A stretch of DNA of 52,646 nucleotides, counting the filler, from Malassezia furfur (lineage: Eukaryota): NCBI GenBank assembly GCA_052055015.1. It is 2 parts of 2 records of this genome, joined end to end, with 100 filler letters (N's around TTAATTAATTAA, not from the genome) between each part and the next. Parts side by side here need not be neighbours in the genome. Positions count along the whole stretch, not along the records: positions 1 to 26,302 come from JBQJIT010000128.1; 1 more part is not named here. The stretch is one strand, 5' to 3'. This document shows, in pieces, positions 4,429 to 31,089 of the stretch (within the stretch, counting starts at the first letter, position 1; every line of letters starts with the position of its first letter). A program made the translations under genes and the position numbers. The notes beneath the pieces are model-generated. The model made no database searches. It was not told the DNA's origin and saw only the letters and a program-made list of their open reading frames with translations.

Positions 4429-6291
4429 ATGGAAGGCTCGTATGCGGAGCGGTACCGTGAGCTCAAGCGCCGTGCCGAGCAGGAGGCCGAGGCACAGAGC
4501 GAGGAAAGCGATACATCTGAGACGGAGTCGGATGCTACCGAAGATGAGGAGGGCGAGCAGCTGACGCCGCAAGTCGATGCGGCCATTTTGCGCACCCTGC
4601 AAAAGATCCGGAGCAAAGACCCAGAGGTATACAACGCAGAGCGCCGCATCTTTGACCTGGAGCGGGAGCAGGCCTCCAAGCTTGCGCTGCCGGATGCCCC
4701 GAAGAATGCATCCAAGAAGATGACGCTGCAGGACTATCAGCGTCAGCGCCTCCAAGAGGCCATGGACACAGAGGCAGACCCCGCGCGGGCGTTTGCCGAG
4801 GCAACGACGAAGCAGCGCACCAAGGACATCGCACCGGTGCCTACGCACGACGAAGAGCAGGAATCGATTCGGAATGAGTTCCTCACCGCCGTTCCGGAGG
4901 ATGACGATGGCGAAGATTTGTTCCATGTCCGCCGCGACGACGACGCTCCCCAAGATACCTACCGCACCGCGCTCATCGGCGCCTTGGACGGCGGCGACGA
5001 GGGCAAGGTGCGTGAGCTGCTGCGCGATGCCGAACCGAAGCAAGAAGAGGGAGGACTCTCAAAGGAAAACGAAGATTTCCTCCTCAACTACGTGCTGAAC
5101 CGTGGGTGGGTCGACAAGGAGGCGCCGGGCGCCGGCAAAGATGGACGCGACTGGGACGCAGAGGCTGCCGAGCTCGAGTCTGAAGCGTCGTTTGACTCGG
5201 CGGCGGATGCGTTTGAGCATGCGTACAACTTCCGCTTCGAAGACCCGTCGCTGGCCCAGCAAAACTTTGCGATCCAGAGCTTCCCACGTCATGCGACCGA
5301 CTCGGCGCGTCGCACCGACGACCGGCGCAAGATTGCACGCCAGGAGCGTGCTGAGCGCAAGCAGCGCGAAAAGGAGGAGAAGAAGCGCAAGCTGGACCGC
5401 ATCAAGGCGGAGAAGCGCAAGTCGATTGCTGACAAGCTCAAGCAGCTCCGCGAAGTGGCGGGGGGCGACAACCAGATGGACGACGGCGCTTTTGAGGGCA
5501 TTGACCTCGAGGCCGACTTTGACCCGGACGAGCACGACCGGTTGATGCAGCAGCAATTTGGTGACTCGTACTACGAGGTAAAGGACGGCGAGAAGCCGCA
5601 CTGGGACGAGGACGACGAGCTCCAAGAAATCCTCGAGGAGAATGAGGAGGATGAGCCGCCCAAGAAGAAAAAGAAGAGCAAAAAGAGCGACGCGAACGAC
5701 ACCGACGTAATGGACGCCGACTTTATTGAAGGTCAGACGGACGCGAAGCTGTCCAAGAAGGAGCGCAAGCGCCTCAAGAAGCAGGAGAAGAAGGCTCGGA
5801 GCAAGGCTGAGCGTGCCGAGACCGACCAAGGCGTGGACGTCGACGAAATGGATGCCGAGCGTGCTGGGGGCCCCGAGAGCGAGCAGGACCGCAAAGCCAA
5901 GGCGCGGGAGCTGATGGACGAATACTACAACCTGGGCTACGAGGACATCATTGGCGATACGCCCACGCGGTTCAAGTACGCCAAGGTGCCGAAGGAAGAC
6001 TTTGGCATGAGCGCCGTCGAAATCCTGCTGGCAGATGACGCGGAGCTGAACCAGGTGGTCGGCTTGAAGCACCTGCAGCCGTACCGCCGCGGCGGGGGCA
6101 AGCCGGCGAACCTGAACAAGAAGCTGAAGCGCTTCCGCGAGCAGATGCAGGCCAAGTGGGACCAGGAGGAAGGTGCGGCTCCGGCCGAGCCACCCAAGAA
6201 GAAGCGCCTGGGCAAAAAGGAGCGCCAGAAGCTCAAGCAGCAGCAGGCTGCGCAAGACACGGAAGAGGCCCAGGAAGATGCTACGAAATAG
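4429..6291 (+). CDS. KRI1: Kri1, 40S ribosome biogenesis factor
   Basis: LTPQVDAAILRTLQKIRSKDPEVY, FLLNYVLNRGW, FEHAYNFRFED, YEDIIGDTPTRFKY and EILLADDAELNQVVGLKHLQPYR. ATG at 4429. Confidence 0.93.
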   Translation: MEGSYAERYRELKRRAEQEAEAQSEESDTSETESDATEDEEGEQLTPQVDAAILRTLQKIRSKDPEVYNAERRIFDLEREQASKLALPDAPKNASKKMTLQDYQRQRLQEAMDTEADPARAFAEATTKQRTKDIAPVPTHDEEQESIRNEFLTAVPEDDDGEDLFHVRRDDDAPQDTYRTALIGALDGGDEGKVRELLRDAEPKQEEGGLSKENEDFLLNYVLNRGWVDKEAPGAGKDGRDWDAEAAELESEASFDSAADAFEHAYNFRFEDPSLAQQNFAIQSFPRHATDSARRTDDRRKIARQERAERKQREKEEKKRKLDRIKAEKRKSIADKLKQLREVAGGDNQMDDGAFEGIDLEADFDPDEHDRLMQQQFGDSYYEVKDGEKPHWDEDDELQEILEENEEDEPPKKKKKSKKSDANDTDVMDADFIEGQTDAKLSKKERKRLKKQEKKARSKAERAETDQGVDVDEMDAERAGGPESEQDRKAKARELMDEYYNLGYEDIIGDTPTRFKYAKVPKEDFGMSAVEILLADDAELNQVVGLKHLQPYRRGGGKPANLNKKLKRFREQMQAKWDQEEGAAPAEPPKKKRLGKKERQKLKQQQAAQDTEEAQEDATK

Positions 6292-22924: not shown

Positions 22925-22971
22925 GGCTACCCAAGGGAGGGAGGGGACGGTGGAGGTAGGTGGAGGCCACC

Positions 22972-24183
22972 ATGCCTGCGCCCGGCGAGCTGTCGGAGCT
23001 GCGTGCGCTCGAGCAGCTCGAGGCGCAGCTGGGCGCACTGCACGATGCGGGTGACACACAGAAGTGCATGCAGAGCGAGGTGCTGAATGCCTTGGACTCG
23101 GAGCAGAAACTCGTCGAGGACGCGCTGCAGCAACTCGCGATGATCGAGCGCCAGGCGGCGGCCGATCGCGAGCTGACGCTAGCCCCCACCGAGACGACGG
23201 TGCGCTACACGCTGCCTCTGCTCAAGAAAAAGAGCCCGCTGTTGCAAGCACATGCCGATGAACGCCGTCGGACGCGCGCGCTGCTTTCAGCGCCGCAATG
23301 GAGTGCGCAAGACGTCGAATGTCTGCGCATTGCGATGGAGAACGAGCGGCTACGTTCCGCGGCGCTGCATACCGATCCTGGCACCGTGGACTGGGCACGT
23401 GTCTCGATGCAGGTCCCTTTCCATACCCCCGAAGACTGCCGCACGCGCTGGTACTTTTATGAGCGCGCTTCCGTCAATTTGACGCGCTGGAGCACGGGCG
23501 AGAAGCGTGCGTTGGCATCGGCCATCGACCAGGCAAATCCATCATGGGAAGATGCTGCAGACTCGCTCAAGACGGGGCGCACTGGCTATGCGGCGCTCGA
23601 GGCGTATCAGCGGGGTATCAAGCCGGCGATTGACTGGACACCCGAGCGCGACGCGGCGCTGCTGGCCGCCGTGCAAAGCCTGGGCCCCGACTGGAAAGCG
23701 GTGGTGCAGCATCTTGGATACCCTGCCTTTTGTGCATCGCTGTGCCATCAGCGGCACAGCAAGCTGAAGAGCACCGCGCTTCGTCTCGGTCGGTGGAGTG
23801 CCGAAGAGGATGCGGCCCTGCGTGCGGCGGTCGCCGAGTACGGATGCGACTGGAAACGCGTCGAGATCTATGTGCCAGGGCGCAGTGGGCAGCAGTGCCG
23901 CGAGCGGTGGGTGGGCCGTTTGGCCAACATTCCCGAGGGCGAGACGCAGGCAACCCGACGAGCATGGCTCCCCGAGGAGGACGCGCGGCTGCGCGAATGT
24001 GTACAAAAGTATAAGACGTGGGTGCAAGTCGCCGAGCATGTGGGCGGACGCTCCGACAAGATGGTGCGCGAGCGATGGCTGCTGCTCCGCCGGCGGGACG
24101 AGGAGGATGCGATGCGGCAGCGAGGCGAGCCGGTTCCCGCGCGCCGCGGGCGGCGGCAGTCCGATACAGGCCAAAAGACATAG
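22972..24183 (+). CDS. Multi-repeat Myb/SANT protein, SNAPC4-like architecture
   Basis: About five W-spaced Myb repeats (WSAQD..L, WSTGEK..L, WTPERD..L, WSAEED..L...GRSGQQCRERW, WLPEED..L...GRSDKMVRERW). ATG at 22972. Confidence 0.8.
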   Translation: MPAPGELSELRALEQLEAQLGALHDAGDTQKCMQSEVLNALDSEQKLVEDALQQLAMIERQAAADRELTLAPTETTVRYTLPLLKKKSPLLQAHADERRRTRALLSAPQWSAQDVECLRIAMENERLRSAALHTDPGTVDWARVSMQVPFHTPEDCRTRWYFYERASVNLTRWSTGEKRALASAIDQANPSWEDAADSLKTGRTGYAALEAYQRGIKPAIDWTPERDAALLAAVQSLGPDWKAVVQHLGYPAFCASLCHQRHSKLKSTALRLGRWSAEEDAALRAAVAEYGCDWKRVEIYVPGRSGQQCRERWVGRLANIPEGETQATRRAWLPEEDARLRECVQKYKTWVQVAEHVGGRSDKMVRERWLLLRRRDEEDAMRQRGEPVPARRGRRQSDTGQKT

Positions 24184-24345: not shown

Positions 24346-25874
24346 TTAGCTCGCTTCGATGACAATCCCCGCCGCAACGGTCTCGCCGTGCATGCGGAAC
24401 AGCAAGCGCGCCATCTCCTTGTTCTTGCTGAATGTCTCGATGGGGTACCCCCGTCCGTCGCCAAGCTTGATGCGTGCGGTCGCCGAGCTCTGCTGCGGCA
24501 GCACGCGTGGCTTCTTCTTGATGATGTCACCCGAGCCCTTGTCGAGGAGTGCAATGAGCTCCACCAACTGCCCCGGGATATCGGCGCTGTGGTGGTACAC
24601 CTCGAGCGCTGTGCCCTGGACGAGGGGGTAGGTCGGCTGGAAGACGAGCAGCTGCACCACGACCTCGCTCACGAGCGGCACGAGCGCGTCCGGCGGACAC
24701 ACGACGCTGCCGACGCTCACGTGGTTCTGCTCGAGGTGCGCAAAGTAGAGCGTGGCGTTGGTGCCCGCCGCGGCCCACGGCACCAGCTCATTGTCGCACT
24801 CGATCGCACGCACCAGCCCCGTCTCGTCGCCCGGCAGCGGGCGGAGCACCTCGCCGACCTGCACGAGGCCAGACACGATGCGCCCTGCGACACCGAGGCC
24901 CGAGGACGCCGCCGACATGCTGCGGAACACGTTCGAGACGGGCATGCGGAGCGGAGCGTCGATGAGCCGGGCCGGCATGCGGAGAGCATCGAGCGCCTCG
25001 GCGAGCGTGCGCCCCGCGTACCATGGCGCGAGCGAGGCGTCGCGCTGTGCGACGTTCCACCCGACCGATGCCGCGCATGGTACGAACTGCACGCAGTGGT
25101 CCATATCGAAGCCGCACTGCGCGAGGAAGGGCGTCAGGGTGGTGCGGATCTCGTGGTAGCGTGCCTCGTCGTAGGAGGTCGCGTCGAGCTTGTTGATCGC
25201 CACGACAAGCTGCTGCACGCCCAGGCTGCGCAGGAGCGTCGCATGCTCGCGCGTCTGCCCGCGCGGCAGGAAGCCGGCCTCGAACGCGCCGAGGATCGCA
25301 TCCACGACGAGGATCGCCGCGTCGGCCTGCGCCGCGCCGCTGATCATGTTCGGCACAAAGTCGCTGTGCCCCGGCGCGTCGAGCAGGTGGAAGAGGGTGG
25401 TGGGCGTCCGGAAGCTGTCCTGTGCGACGTCGATCGTGACGCCGCGCGCGCGCTCCTCTTCGGACGAGTCGAGCGCCCACGCATACGCGAAGCTGCTCTT
25501 GCCCATCTTGGCGCTGCCGCGCACGTTCTTTTCGTGCTCACGGTCACCCAGCTGGCCAAACTCGTGCAGCATGCGCCCCATCAGCGTCGACTTGCCCGAG
25601 TCGACGTGCCCGACCACCACCAGTCCGATCTCGCGCTGCCCACGCTGATCGCGCTGGTGCGCCTCGGCGCGCGCCTGCTCGCGGGGCATGCTGAGTTTGG
25701 GCGACGGGGAGTGGGCGCGCGGGCTGCCGGCATGGCTGCCCGACTGGCTGCCCGTGCCGCTGGATGCGTTGGAGCTGCCCAGGTCCATCTTTTGCAGCGA
25801 GCCACGCAGCTGCTGCACGGGTCCGGCGGCCGGGCGGCGCGCGGCGGCCTGCGCCTGCTTGTTGCGTTCCTTCT
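24346..25874 (-). CDS. HBS1: Hbs1 translational GTPase, last exon (5' exons lost in the gap)
   Basis: GHVDSGKSTLMG, EERARGVTID, DAPGHSDFVPNMISGA, GQTREH and NKLD. 3' splice site GCTGAC-CCTC-CAG ending at 25875. Confidence 0.92.
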
Positions 25875-25978
25875 CTGGAGGGTCAGCACACGCCCAAAAC
25901 AGCGGCGACAAGGGAGCACGGCGTGGGTACGACGGCCAGGACTATGAGCAGCCGCGGCGCGCGGCGGCCTACGGCGCA

Positions 25979-26302
25979 TCACTGCGCGAGCCGCGTGCCG
26001 CGCCGCGCCTGCAGCACGACGTCGTCCGGACTGAGGCTCGCAAACGCGGCACGCAGCCGCTGCATCTCGTCGTCCGACACGGGCTTGGCGCCCATCGTGT
26101 GCGGGTGCATCTCCACGGGGCGCTCAAGGAGCTGCACGAACGGCGACGCCGAAGCGCGCGGGCGGCCCGCGTCGAGCAAGGCAGACGCGCGCGGAGGAAA
26201 CAGCGTTGCGAGCGGCTCGCCGGACGGCGCCGTCGTGGGCGCAGAAGGCGCTGCAGGCGGCTGCGGCGACGCCGTCCGCGACGCGGCCGGCGTGCGCAGC
26301 GG
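25979..26302 (-). CDS. SKI7: Ski7-type (HBS1L-V3-like) alternative terminal exon of the HBS1/SKI7 locus, partial
   Basis: Open frame from the gap to a TGA at 25979-25981 encoding RASASPFVQLL and FASLSPDDVVLQAR, matching the Ski7 exosome-binding motifs. Confidence 0.7.
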   Translation of the reverse strand, partial: PLRTPAASRTASPQPPAAPSAPTTAPSGEPLATLFPPRASALLDAGRPRASASPFVQLLERPVEMHPHTMGAKPVSDDEMQRLRAAFASLSPDDVVLQARRGTRLAQ

Positions 26303-26402
26303 NNNNNNNNNNNNNNNNNNNNNNNNNNNNNNNNNNNNNNNNNNNNTTAATTAATTAANNNNNNNNNNNNNNNNNNNNNNNNNNNNNNNNNNNNNNNNNN
26401 NN
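26303..26402. other. Artificial scaffold spacer / assembly gap
   Basis: 44 N + TTAATTAATTAA (26347-26358; stops in all six frames) + 44 N = 100 bp. Confidence 0.97.
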
Positions 26403-29400
26403 GGGCTTTCAGCAGGGCGCGTCGCATCGCCGCCACGCATGCTCAGCGGCGTCATGGAAACCGGCGCAGGCACCGCACCCGTCTCGCCGATCTGGCCAGG
26501 TACAGGCGCCGCAGTCGGCATACCCGTCGGCACACCCGTCTGCGCACCCACCATGCCCGCTGCAGTCGTCGCAGCGGTCAGACCCGTCGCATGCGCCACA
26601 ACCGGTGGCACGGCAGACGTCGCCGAGGAAACGTCCTTCGGCACCTTGGGCATCTTGGGCACGAGCGGGTGCTTGGGCATAGAGAGTTCCTTGAGCGACG
26701 GTGCCTTGGGCACGGGGATCTCGGGCAGCTCAGCATCGATGCCGTGCGACGGCTTTGCGGCGCCCGCCATCGTCGCGTCACGCATCGAGACACCCGACAG
26801 GGCGTGCAGCGCCGAACCGCGGCTCGGGTCCTTCTGCGGCACCTCGGGGCGCGGCACGTTCGAACCCGCGGCGTCGCCCTCGCGCAGGTTGGACGACGAC
26901 GAGCCACGCTTGCTGTGGCGCGACAGGAACGGCATGTTGGAGAAGAAGCCAGAGTTGCGCGTGCCATCGAAGCTGAAGCGCTTGCTCTTGCGCCGCGAGC
27001 TGCGACGACTCGTGCTCTCGCTCGGGGCCGCAGACGCCGAGTCCTCCGAGAGGCTCGGGCGCGTCGACGGGTCCGCATCCGTTGCGTCCGTCTTGTCCAT
27101 TGCCGTTGGCAGCGCAGTCGCCGACGGCTGTGACTCGGCAGGCGACGATGCCGCACTCTTGTCCGCCGTGGGCGGCGCAACAAGCAGCGTCTCCGGACGC
27201 ACCTGCGACTCGGACGAGGGCGCCACCGGCTCGGGCACAGGCACCGGCTCGGGCTTGGGCGGCACCGCAGTCGTCTTGGGCTGCACATCAGCGACTGGGA
27301 CAGCCGGCGAGGCCGCCGAGACAGGCGCCGTCACAGCAGCCGTTGTCGTGCTGCTCGACGGGGCGGCCTTCGCCGCCGCCGTCGCGTGCAGACCCGGCAG
27401 GTAGTTGGGCAGGTACGGCGGCTCGAGGGACGCGCCCTTGACTGCCGGCGCAGCAGCGGCAGGGGAGTCAGCCATCGCCGACGTCGGCGCAGCCGTCGTG
27501 GCCGTCGTGGCCGTCGTCGTCGGCACGCTCATCTTGTCGGTCGTGGCCGTCGGCACGGCGGGCGCCGTGCGCGTCGGCACAACCACATCAGAGACGGGCT
27601 CCGTCGTGCGTGCAGACGGCACAGAGTCCTCGCTGGTAATACGATCGGCGCGCGGGCCAAGCGTCGCGTGCTTCAGGTAGGCCATCCCCGATGCGATGCC
27701 AGCGGCCGCGCCGCCAATCCCAGCACCCACCGCCTCGGTCGCCTCGGTCAGGATCGACGGCGACTTCTCCTTGTCGGCCGGCGATGCAGCGAGGTCGTGC
27801 GTACCCGTCTCGGTTAGGTCCTTGGACGGCGCCATGGGCGAGGCGTTCTTCGACGGCGACTCGTACGCGGTCTCGTTGAACGACGTCTCAGCGTCGGCAT
27901 GCTTCGACGGCGTACGCGTGCCGACCTTAGACAGCATATGCTCCGGCGGCGACTGCAGAGGGGTCGTCGTCTTGGTCGACGGCGCCGGCGCCGTGGGCGT
28001 GATGGGCATCGTCGCAGACGCCGCGTCGGGCGCCACGTCCGACGTCGCCGCAGGCGTCAGAGCAGGAACAGAGGGCTTGGTGCTCTCGGTCGAAGAGCCC
28101 AGCGAGAAGTTCTTGACGGGCACCGCTGCGGGCGTAGCATCCACCGCGGTCGTGGGCGCCTCGACAACGTCCGTACGCAACTCAGTGTCGTGCGCAGGCG
28201 TCGTGCGCAGCTGTGCGCCGGCCACCGCCGTGCGGAAGTCCTTCGTCTTGACCTGCGGCGAGGCCGCAGCAGCTTCCGCACGTGCCTCCTCGGCCTCGGC
28301 CTCGGCCTCGAGACGCGCCTCGGACTCGGCCGCCTCTGCGGGGACGTCGGCGGGGAGGGTCAGCGGCTCGCGCGGCTCCGGCGTCTCGGCCACAGCGTCC
28401 TGGTTGGTCGCGGCGGGGAGGTCGAGCGACTCGGGCGCGGTGGGGAGCGGCGTCTTGTCCGTCACCACATCGGCCACATCGGCCGTGCTCTGGGGGATCT
28501 CGGGCGGAGCATTGACCGCGCCCACATCCGGCGCCGGCGCCTTGCCCTTGTCCAGCGAAGACACCTGCGGCACCGAAGTGTCCGACACCTCCGTCTCCGT
28601 CGCGGTCGGCTTCGACTTCGACAGGGGAAAGCCAGCAAGCGGGCGCGACGTGGGGAACGCCTGTTCGCCCGACATGTCCGCGGCGCCCTCGGCTGCGTCC
28701 ACCGTGTCATCCGTCGTCACCACTGTCGTCGTATCCACCACCACGATCTCCGTTGCATCCGTCGTTGCATCCGTCGTCGCGTCCATCGTCGCGTCCGTCG
28801 CCACGGCGGTGGGCGCCTCAGGCTCTTTGGCACTCTCTTCCGCGGCCTTGGCATGCTGGCCACTTGCGTGGCGACTGCCCGGGTACAGCATCGAGAAGCC
28901 GGCGCTCGCGAGCGCACCCAGACCGCCAAACAGGCCCGCCTTGGCTGCCTCGTCGTGATGCACCGGGGCATCGGTCGGCTGCGGCGTCACGGTGCCCGAG
29001 CGGTCGGCGCGCGCCTCGGTGGGTGCAGCCGTGGCTGTGCGGGTGCTTGCATCGGCAAGCGACGAATCGTGCACCACGGATCCCGCCGGGGTGTCGAGGT
29101 ACTCCTCGGCGTCGTGCATCGGTAGCGTCACGGCCATCGACTCCACTGTGCCGCCATAGCTCGACACCGACGAGCGCGCGTCCTGCTCCTCGTCCTCGGA
29201 CTCATCGTCCTCGTCCTCGGCAAGCACAGAAGCATACTGCGACCGCGGCGCCGGCGAGGCGGCAGTAGCCACCTCGGTCGTGCGCTCCGTCGGCGTTGCG
29301 TTCGTCGACGCCGCCACGGTCGGCTTCACAGGCGTCGCGGTGGGCGACACACGCTTCTCCACGATCGTCGAGGCGACCGAGCGGTCGCCCTCAGGCTCGG

Positions 29401-30802
29401 CGCGGCTACCCGCCTGCAGGTACGCAGGGAGACCGGTCACACGTACCGGCGACGAGGGCGATGCCTCCGCCGCCTCCGCCTCTGCCTCCGCCTCCGCCTC
29501 CGCACCCACATTCGTGGAGACCGCACCCTTGGCCATCGACGACACGGACGTGCCCCTGAGGTAGGCCAAACCCTCGGAGTGCGAGGCGGTGCTCAGCGGC
29601 GGCGGCGGCGCCGTCGTGGACGTCGTCGCAGGCATCGGCGCATCGCTTGTTCCACGGGTGGTCGTCGAGTCAGGCGCGACATCCGATGCGGGCTCTGACG
29701 AGGCGACAGGCGTCTTGGTGCTGTGGAAAGGCAGAGCACCGACGATCGAAGGCGCCGCACCCGTCTGCACGGCCGTCGGTGCTGCACCCGTCTGCACAGT
29801 CGTCGGTGCTGTCGGCGTCTTGGTCGTCGACGCAGCCGGCGAAGTAACCGACTTGGTGCTCGCGGCGGCCGCCCTCTTGCCCGGTGGTTCAACCAGGATC
29901 GGCACAGGCGGCGAAGTCGGTCGGGACGATTTGGGCACCGTCGAGGTGGTGCCCTGGGCCGCCGAAACGGGCGCCGCCAACTTGGGCGCCGTCGAGGTGG
30001 TGGTGCCCTGGGCCATCGAGGCGTTGGTGCCCTGGACCGGCTTGGGAGCAGGCTGCACCACCTGCGTCGGACTGCCGGCCTGCTTAGCATCAAGACCCAT
30101 AGGGCTCGGCATCAGGGCCGAGTTCTGCTCCTTCTCTGCCGTAGGGCTTTCTCCCTTTTCCCGCATAAATGCAGGCAGCTTGGGGACAGGCGGCACAGGC
30201 TCGCCCTTGGGAGCTCCACGGCCCTTGGCGCTCGTGGGCGTCGTGGCCTGCGACGACGCGCCCTTCTTGGGTGTGTTGAGCAGATCCACGGAACTCGTCG
30301 ACGCATTGCCAGCGAGGTTCTTGGAAGAGCGGTTCCAACGGAACGCGCTAAAAGGACCGCCGCCGCTCGACTTGGAGCCAGCGTTCTGTTTGCTGCTCAG
30401 AGACGACGAGCTTGGCATGCGCAGGCGACGACGAAGATCGAGCGAGTGCGAACGCGCGTGCCCATTCGCGGCCGTACTCACAGAAGCCGTATCCTCCGCC
30501 TTGCCTTGGATCGGTGCGCCGTCCTTCCCCACGAGCGCGCTTGTACTGTTGTTTTTCAGAGCCGGAAAGCCCGGGCGCTGCAAATCAGACGTGTCCGGTG
30601 CTGCGCCCTTCAGCTTACTCAGATCGCCATTTGCAGCGGTTCCTGCGGCCGCCGGCTTGGCCGTGTTGGCATTCGAGGAAAGCGTGGACGCCGCGTCCTG
30701 GGCGCCCCCTTGGGGATTCTTGGCCAAATCCTCGGTCTTGCTCGCGACCGACTGGCCCGCCTTCTTGTTCTTGGCCCGCTTCAGGTCAGAGAACAGGGGC
30801 AT
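26403..30802 (-). CDS. Large low-complexity Ala/Thr/Pro/Ser-rich, probably disordered protein; 3' end in the gap
   Basis: More than 1460 open codons from the ATG at 30802 (MPLFSDLKRAK) with coding-like codon bias. No recognisable domain. Confidence 0.75.
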
Positions 30803-31089
30803 GTTGTCCCGGTTCGTCTCTCGCCTAGGAAAGCCGTGAGGAGGAGGATCGCAATCACTCCAGACGCGTGCTCGCGGCAGATGAGTGGATCGGCCGGTTT
30901 GCCTGACCCCGACTAAGCCCAGGGAAATTCCACGCGTCAACCCGACCCCGTTGGCCCCTATTTTTCGTTCGGCCCCCGCCAAAACGCGTGTTTATGCAGG
31001 TGGCATGCCGGCCTGGATGCACGTGTTCGCCACGTGGGTAGGAAGGCGACGCGGCGTGGCGGCCGTCGTAGGGACGCGCAACGACCAGG

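Follow-up and report, generated by a model that had tools for sequence, protein, structure and literature searches.

A Malassezia SKI7/HBS1 locus that probably yields both Hbs1 and a GTPase-less Ski7-type protein

Can a single Malassezia gene supply both Hbs1 and a Ski7-type exosome adaptor? Hbs1 is the partner of Dom34/Pelota and rescues stalled ribosomes. The question is raised by a stretch of Malassezia furfur DNA of 52,646 nucleotides (assembly GCA_052055015.1), hereafter the window, which consists of two parts joined by 100 filler letters, with positions 1 to 26,302 taken from JBQJIT010000128.1. At the end of this first part, directly upstream of the HBS1 GTPase exon, a separate frame ends in its own stop. 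A preliminary annotation of the window (the original prediction) took this frame for a Ski7-type terminal exon nested inside HBS1, skipped to make Hbs1 and included to make a Ski7 without GTPase. We estimate a probability of roughly four in five that the window carries the 3′ half of a single SKI7/HBS1 gene yielding two proteins. Such a two-product arrangement is already established in kind, and the Malassezia locus adds to it.

Coordinates are positions along the whole window, and the gene lies on the minus strand. Translation gave a frame that is open from the contig end at 26302 and stops at a TGA (25981-25979), encoding a tail of 107 residues (P0001) whose C-terminal end is ...FASLSPDDVVLQARRGTRLAQ. 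Further on, a GCTGAC branch site (25887-25882) is followed by CCTC and then by a CAG ending at 25875, with the acceptor AG at 25876-25875. The predicted peptide, stop and acceptor were all reproduced from the sequence, and the acceptor does open an HBS1 GTPase exon. The open reading frame (ORF) that runs from 25874 matched Pfam GTP_EFTU (1.1e-45) and GTP-eEF1A_C (6.9e-16), and its best solved relative was mammalian Hbs1l (5lzw_jj, 7.7e-107, 361 bits), ahead of eEF1A (~288 bits) and eRF3 (~252 bits). The GTPase part is 97% identical to an HBS1_N-carrying protein of M. furfur CBS14141 and 80% identical to those of M. psittaci and M. yamatoensis, identities that place the window in Malassezia, near M. 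furfur. Judged by these matches, the downstream ORF is an Hbs1-type translational GTPase on the same strand as the tail. Its exon opens inside a codon, of which it holds the second and third bases, the first being supplied by the upstream donor. Relative to P0006, an ORF of M. furfur type from a close relative, the spacer between tail and GTPase exon contains a frame-shifting indel while branch and acceptor letters are retained; the GTPase frame therefore does not reach upstream of the acceptor. The AGs at 25873 and 25870 were rejected as acceptors from the shared donor, both being out of phase with its conserved phase 1.

To which gene does the tail belong? The frame adjoins an assembly gap, which consists of two 44-N runs flanking a TTAATTAATTAA linker at 26347-26358. 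Linkers like this, with stops in all frames, are used for joining contigs, and the flanks may therefore have been ordered by inference and not by sequencing. Three ORFs were recovered when longer proteins were searched with the 107-residue peptide: P0003, an uninterrupted public ORF of 376 aa with 100% identity over all 107 residues; P0004, an uninterrupted ORF of 378 aa on a 670-kb contig, 84% identical to the peptide; and P0005, of 294 aa and 58% identical. All three have the same layout of HBS1_N, low-complexity linker and tail, and the same ...RRGTRLAQ end. HBS1_N (PF08938) was detected at 2e-14 in P0003 and 8.9e-15 in P0004. Residues 270-376 of P0003 make up the window part, and 807 coding nt fall in the gap, where the shared 5′ part had been predicted to lie. 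Since P0003 fuses the tail to HBS1_N, we conclude that the tail segment belongs to HBS1. The same ORF disposes of the possibility, raised with the original prediction, that closing the gap would assign the segment to an unrelated gene; a separate candidate, the tail as C-terminus of the large low-complexity ORF upstream, was ruled out on the same ground.

Splice layouts were then read in the DNA of relatives (Table 1). Four loci, L001 to L004, came from a scan of metagenome contigs that used the aligned short proteins as query; L001 has the same sequence as L002. L002 and L003 cover query residues 1-376 and 1-375 with 45% identity in the best segment, and represent related Malassezia-like loci. 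In both, a shared donor follows the basic end of HBS1_N. Joined to a proximal acceptor, this donor opens a Ski7-like exon in frame, which ends with SPDD, 13 further codons and a stop; joined to a distal acceptor, it forms a Glu codon and restores the GTPase frame. The window acceptor matches the distal acceptors of L002 and L003 in phase and first codons, and in all three sequences a CTRAC branch site lies 4-5 nt before the AG that opens the GTPase exon, with the same codon phase. A donor that could serve for in-frame skipping is seen as DNA in L002 and L003; the putative donor of the window was placed from the Gly-Thr codons of P0003. In L004, from a distant and AT-richer basidiomycete, HBS1_N and a ...SPDDKVLEARKGT... 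tail stand in one uninterrupted ORF in which a phase-1 CAAG/GTAAGG donor is embedded, the layout also proposed for the window lineage.

Is the tail conserved as a protein? The stop lies exactly 13 codons past SPDD in the window (TGA), L002 (TAG) and L003 (TAA). A sequencing error near the contig end was ruled out as its source, the same position being occupied in two other lineages by different stop codons. Over the last 35 sense codons, differences at first, second and third codon positions in the pairs formed by the window, L002 and L003 numbered 7/11/19, 10/12/22 and 11/11/18; changes fall mostly at third positions, with 9-11 synonymous codon differences per pair. This pattern extends over the residues past SPDD that public gene models call intron. 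We further searched 1.84 billion cluster representatives with a profile from alignment A3, which unintentionally retained 291 positions including HBS1_N. It recovered 56 proteins at E<=1e-3, 53 of them new beyond P0003, P0005 and P0009. By pattern match the tail motif was present in 41/53, and the other 12 matched in the N-terminal part only. After SPDD, the protein ended within 15 residues in 24/41, within 20 in 33/41 and within 50 in 40/41, the lone exception being an annotated Tilletia horrida model of 942 aa (P0138). HBS1_N was found in 17/41 tail-bearers and the GTPase in 1/41. Named members include proteins of Rhodotorula dairenensis (425 aa) and Tilletia horrida, and a Joint Genome Institute (JGI) 'elongation factor 1 alpha-like' protein (386 aa). 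A stop soon past the SPDD motif is widely conserved, and the constant stop position, branch site and acceptor phase of the window, L002 and L003 exceed what chance would give.

Within the tail, three motifs stand out (Table 1). In the PSG..L..LFP motif, found across Malassezia, P26, S27, G28, L34, F35 and P36 are invariant in alignment A3. The second, S-P-F-V-Q-L-L, has invariant S53 and F55 and coincides with an AlphaFold helix at 54-60. Its likeness to the SKI7-like consensus A+PShFAahL or RxxxFxxxL is only partial, because the basic residue at -4 is absent, while S at -2, F, and L at +4 are kept. The third corresponds to motif S3, where L83, F87, L90, S91, P92, D93, D94, V96, Q98, A99 and R100 are invariant in alignment A3 and S, P, D, D and R in 16/16 aligned tails. 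Compared by eye with the sequences given in PMC5389692 and PMC6143672, its F-A-S-L-S-P-D-D-V-V-L-Q-A-R fits the published F..aSPDDIV+A consensus well. AlphaFold modelled the tail with four short helices (31-34, 54-60, 77-88 and 92-106) that overlie the conserved motifs. Its predicted local distance difference test score (pLDDT) was 72 and its predicted template modelling score (pTM) 0.27, the best part being residues 71-100 (block-mean pLDDT 85-89).

Table 1. Features of the SKI7/HBS1 locus in the window and in the related loci L002 and L003 (a slash marks the splice site)
Feature	Window position (strand)	L002	L003	Remarks
Assembly gap	26303..26402			Hides promoter, HBS1_N coding part, shared donor and first 269 codons
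Ski7-like product, C-terminal 107 codons	25982..26302 (-)			Residues 270-376 of the putative 376-aa short isoform; translation and P0003 identity
PSG..L..LFP conserved motif	26195..26227 (-)			P0001 residues 26-36; alignment A3
SKI7-like motif candidate S-P-F-V-Q-L-L	26126..26146 (-)			Residues 53-59; predicted helical
Patch-4-like / motif S3 region, L-R-..-F-..-L-S-P-D-D-V-V-L-Q-A-R	26003..26056 (-)			Residues 83-100; alignment A3
Stop codon of short isoform	25979..25981 (-), TGA	TAG	TAA	13 codons past SPDD; ends the Ski7-like exon in L002 and L003
Non-coding spacer	25875..25978 (-)			104 nt; putative 3′ end of long Hbs1 intron and start of short-isoform 3′ untranslated region
Hbs1 GTPase exon	24349..25874 (-)			Single ORF; stop at 24348-24346
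Intron within HBS1_N		25 nt	40 nt
Shared donor		GCGCAG/GTACGT	GCGCAG/GTACGT	Phase 1
Donor-to-proximal-acceptor distance		62 nt	61 nt
Branch site ahead of proximal acceptor		CGCTGAC	CTGAC
Stop-to-distal-acceptor distance		16 nt	14 nt
Branch site ahead of distal acceptor		CACTGAC	TACTAAC
Hbs1 length via distal acceptor		609 aa	602 aa

How would two proteins be made from the window locus? Both would begin with HBS1_N, hidden in the gap, and a phase-1 donor would lie right past the basic end of this domain, at the Gly-103 codon of P0003. Joining that donor to the acceptor ending at 25875 would remove ~928 nt and give an Hbs1 of 611 aa, made of HBS1_N, linker and GTPase. If the long intron were kept instead, translation would pass through a disordered linker into 26302-25982 and end at the TGA at 25981-25979. 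The short form would arise without splicing or, in sister lineages, through a proximal acceptor 61-62 nt past the donor. It would comprise 376 aa, with HBS1_N and the Ski7-type tail and no GTPase. On the model of yeast Ski7 and human HBS1L-V3, the tail would dock on the cytoplasmic exosome, where contacts with Csl4 through the patch-4-like SPDD helix pair and with Rrp43/Mtr3 through the S-P-F-..-L-L helix may be expected. For the window we infer the donor, both mRNAs and exosome binding; the comparative evidence, namely the fusion in P0003, the two acceptors of L002 and L003 and the conserved stop, upholds the idea of one locus giving Hbs1 by skipping and a GTPase-less Ski7 by early termination.

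An arrangement of this kind has been described in other basidiomycetes, so the novelty implied by the original prediction does not hold. According to section 9 and Text S1 of Marshall et al. 2013 (PMC3597508), Cryptococcus neoformans and Ustilago maydis make Hbs1 by skipping one or more Ski7-specific exons. The annotated intron that joins the Ski7 part to the GTPase there has poor splice sites and, in the same account, no support from expressed sequence tags (ESTs) or RNA-seq; the likely product is a truncated Ski7-like protein that ends in motif S3, has no GTPase and is 'strikingly similar' to human HBS1L splice form 3 (PMC3597508). Shared with the window are the single gene, the skipping of the Ski7-specific part proposed for Hbs1, the stop within the annotated intron, the SPDD near the C-terminus, the missing GTPase and the poor splice sites of annotated introns that bypass the stop. 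Apart from the genus, the cases differ in that the Ski7-specific part of U. maydis is a separate exon 2, whereas in the window lineage it seems to be joined directly to exon 1, no intron preceding it, and in that transcript evidence from ESTs exists for U. maydis and C. neoformans.

The likeness extends to human HBS1L isoform 3 (HBS1LV3), which binds the exosome through an RxxxFxxxL helix and carries PFDFxxxSPDDIVKxNQ at its extreme C-terminus (PMC5389692). As in the window, its N-terminus is common with Hbs1, an alternative segment with its own stop lies between the N-terminal and GTPase exons, there is no GTPase, and F...SPDD(I/V)V at the extreme C-terminus is preceded by an F...L helix (PMC5389692, PMC4942675). 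In contrast, the human segment forms terminal exon 5, discrete and with a 3′ end of its own, is far longer (residues 144-632) and has an arginine, R559 of RxxxFxxxL, without counterpart at the same spacing in the window; its binding to exosome and SKI is experimental, while that of the window product is our proposal. For metazoans, Brunkard and Baker give the consensus sequences A+PShFAahL and ...F[K/D][S/T]aSPDDIV+A (PMC6143672). Yeast Ski7 contacts Csl4 in its patch 4 via P212, D213 and D214 among others (PMC4942675). These three residues correspond to P-D-D of the window tail, and both proteins have a region of short helices, predicted in the window tail and exosome-binding in yeast (PMC4942675), but S. 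cerevisiae Ski7 is the product of a separate duplicated gene, has a GTPase-like domain and shows no HMMER-detectable similarity to the tail. Lachancea kluyveri and other ascomycetes join one donor to a proximal or a distal acceptor, the proximal one adding Ski7-specific sequence (PMC3597508), which is the exact layout of L002 and L003. In those ascomycetes the GTPase is present in both isoforms (PMC3597508), whereas in Malassezia a stop precedes the distal acceptor and the Ski7-like form lacks it.

Several observations weigh against this interpretation of the window. The donor and the first 269 codons fall in the gap and come from a public ORF rather than from the window genome. An unspliced mRNA would have a 3′ untranslated region (UTR) of ~1.6 kb and could be a target of nonsense-mediated mRNA decay (NMD). 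An uninterrupted ORF call can hide an intron: P0126, called as a single ORF in a close relative of L002, runs through an in-frame intron free of stops and has 20 extra residues exactly at the site of the 62-nt intron of L002, so some lineages have a stop-free, 3n-long version of the proximal intron. The tally of 41 tail-bearing proteins is biased towards ORF calls, and long annotated models may hide in clusters whose representative lacks the tail. The arginine of the human RxxxFxxxL has no counterpart at the matching tail position. Against solved chains, P0001 had 0 phmmer hits at E<=10 and a 16-sequence tail profile only chance-level hits (an Fe-hydrogenase at 0.067), and the AlphaFold tail model had no Foldseek match at E<=0.001. 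The absence of a fold or sequence match to Ski7 or HBS1L3 chains carries little weight, since short linear motifs that fold on binding would not be expected to give one. ESM Atlas likewise returned no usable match for the tail, and Pfam found no family above threshold in the tail alone (DUF6743 at E 0.26 was noise). A profile of the whole short isoform matched only Hbs1 N-termini among solved chains (3mca_A and 5lzw_jj). The proposed link of the tail to Ski7 and HBS1L-V3 is that of motif match, gene position and published comparison.

Is the segment an exon of its own? Neither P0003 nor P0004 is interrupted at the donor codon. Provided that the AKAP stretch is homologous, what follows the donor aligns with L002 in its spliced form, which leaves no room for a proximal intron. 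The segment of the window lineage appears to be a prolongation of exon 1 beyond an internal donor and not a separate exon, and the short isoform would then be a product of intron retention. The original prediction had instead assumed a discrete cassette or terminal exon, with a poly(A) site between 25978 and 25890. We consider a discrete alternative terminal exon, with its own acceptor and a poly(A) site before 25890 as in human HBS1L exon 5, to be unlikely. It would agree with the separate Ski7-like exon and proximal acceptor of L002 and L003, and the 104-nt spacer after the window stop is longer than theirs. It does not agree with the continuity of P0003 and P0004 from HBS1_N into the tail, nor with the alignment to spliced L002 just described. 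Moreover, L002 and L003 have only 16 and 14 nt between stop and acceptor, which means that a poly(A) site at this place is not a conserved requirement, and by eye no AATAAA-like signal was seen in the very GC-rich spacer of the window.

The window lineage may have a tiny in-frame intron between the donor codon and the tail. Very short introns appear to be expected in Malassezia, since a re-annotation of M. restricta worked with minimum intron lengths of 20 and 15 nt (PMC6473144). As to how the adaptor is produced, we tentatively suggest, with slightly more doubt than confidence, that the mode switched within the genus: L002 and L003 use either a proximal or a distal acceptor, while the M. furfur lineage would have lost the 61-62-nt intron and kept the donor, so that the adaptor is made from mRNA with the ~928-nt intron unspliced. 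An intron of that length is very long compared with those of 25-62 nt read in related loci.

Public gene models offer a different picture of the locus, but no consistent one. Among six annotated Malassezia models, one skips the segment, four read through it with ad hoc introns, and one covers the GTPase only. The five that contain HBS1_N (P0007, P0008, P0009, P0017 and P0027) are mutually inconsistent. P0007, the M. furfur model, leaves exon 1 right after ...KKRA and omits the Ski7-like part; its acceptor region is mis-modelled and passes through two other frames of the spacer. In the remaining four the stop is avoided by junctions that lie at three places, after LQAR, SPDDV and SPDD. Since the five disagree, predictors do badly here, as had been anticipated.

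Taken at face value, the four models that read through would mean a long Ski7 isoform with GTPase, in which a second short intron in or just after SPDD removes the stop and joins the tail to the GTPase exon. Tail and GTPase stand in one model in M. psittaci (P0008, 889 aa), M. yamatoensis (P0009, 885 aa), Malassezia sp. CBS 17886 (P0017, 813 aa), M. cuniculi (P0027, 754 aa) and Tilletia horrida (P0138, 942 aa), and the ascomycete Ski7 isoform retains its GTPase (PMC3597508). We nevertheless regard this isoform as improbable, for the four Malassezia models place the junction at three different sites, and every in-frame GT donor before the window stop is weak (GTGTCG, GTGCCG, GTCCGG, GTCGTG and GTGCTG), whereas the donors of relatives are GTACGT and GTATGT. 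In addition, the stop position and the residues that follow SPDD show conservation with synonymous changes, a pattern unexpected for an intron, and for U. maydis and C. neoformans the equivalent annotated introns were not accepted as real by Marshall et al. in Text S1 (PMC3597508).

In fungi, intron retention that brings in a premature stop and a long 3′ UTR is common, whether as regulation or as noise, and the frame might on that account encode no functional protein, the unspliced RNA being a by-product or a means of NMD-coupled control of Hbs1 level. A 'poison intron' is also described for rice SKI7 (PMC6143672), but such an explanation is very improbable here, given that the tail is conserved as protein across basidiomycete subphyla with its stop at a near-fixed distance, that codon differences are concentrated at third positions, and that the motifs match those experimentally important in Ski7 and HBS1L-V3.

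What does a gene yielding two proteins, our preferred interpretation, mean for Malassezia? It leaves the general picture, which was already established, unchanged, and adds comparative support to the 2013 proposal of a GTPase-less basidiomycete Ski7. For the genus, it provides a candidate Ski7-type exosome adaptor. A table in a mycovirus study of M. restricta lists SKI7 as 'No hits' (PMC7468201), and our search of a literature collection found no paper mentioning both Malassezia and HBS1, and three mentioning Malassezia together with Ski7. If the mode of production did switch as suggested, the short isoform would be this 'missing' SKI7 (PMC7468201), and a candidate link would exist in a skin commensal between splicing efficiency, 3′-5′ decay and control of double-stranded RNA viruses. 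Within the genus, which seems to hold both alternative-acceptor and retained-intron layouts, the locus would be an example of a splicing mode that drifts while both products are kept. The inconsistency of the public models is in itself useful for re-annotation.

Two further observations concern the part of the protein upstream of the tail. P0003 and P0004 have 8 extra in-frame residues at about residues 28-35, starting with Gly-Ala or Gly-Met, at the site of the HBS1_N intron of L002 and L003; opposite them lie the 25-nt and 40-nt introns at L002 4083-4107 and L003 4083-4122. These residues could represent a 24-nt in-frame micro-intron or an intron remnant. A K-L-S-K-L-Q-Q-K motif, at P0003 residues 205-218 (within the window gap) and about L002 4580-4610, is invariant in 7/7 Malassezia short isoforms and also occurs in distant basidiomycete matches. 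The passages of the Ski7/HBS1L papers considered here make no mention of it, and that it might bind another partner, such as the Ski complex, is speculation.

In L003, the GTPase exon begins directly past the distal acceptor with a long A-rich run (5058-5085), a conceivable poly(A) site for the mRNA of the short isoform. On the far side of the gap, the window contains a very long minus-strand open frame rich in A, S, T and P (26403-30991; 1546 codons stop-to-stop, 17 of them from the gap), which enters the gap without a stop and had no Pfam match over the 1465 codons scanned. The gene upstream of SKI7/HBS1 in L003 is unlike this, being an isocitrate/isopropylmalate-dehydrogenase-like ORF on the opposite strand; either gene order differs between the two, or the sequences on the two sides of the gap are not contiguous. 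On the other side, a Myb-repeat gene on the plus strand (22960-24183; Myb_DNA-binding, 6.6e-39) is convergent with HBS1, with ~165 nt between the stop codons. The same Myb neighbour lies 3′ of HBS1 in both L002 and L003, and synteny is retained on that side.

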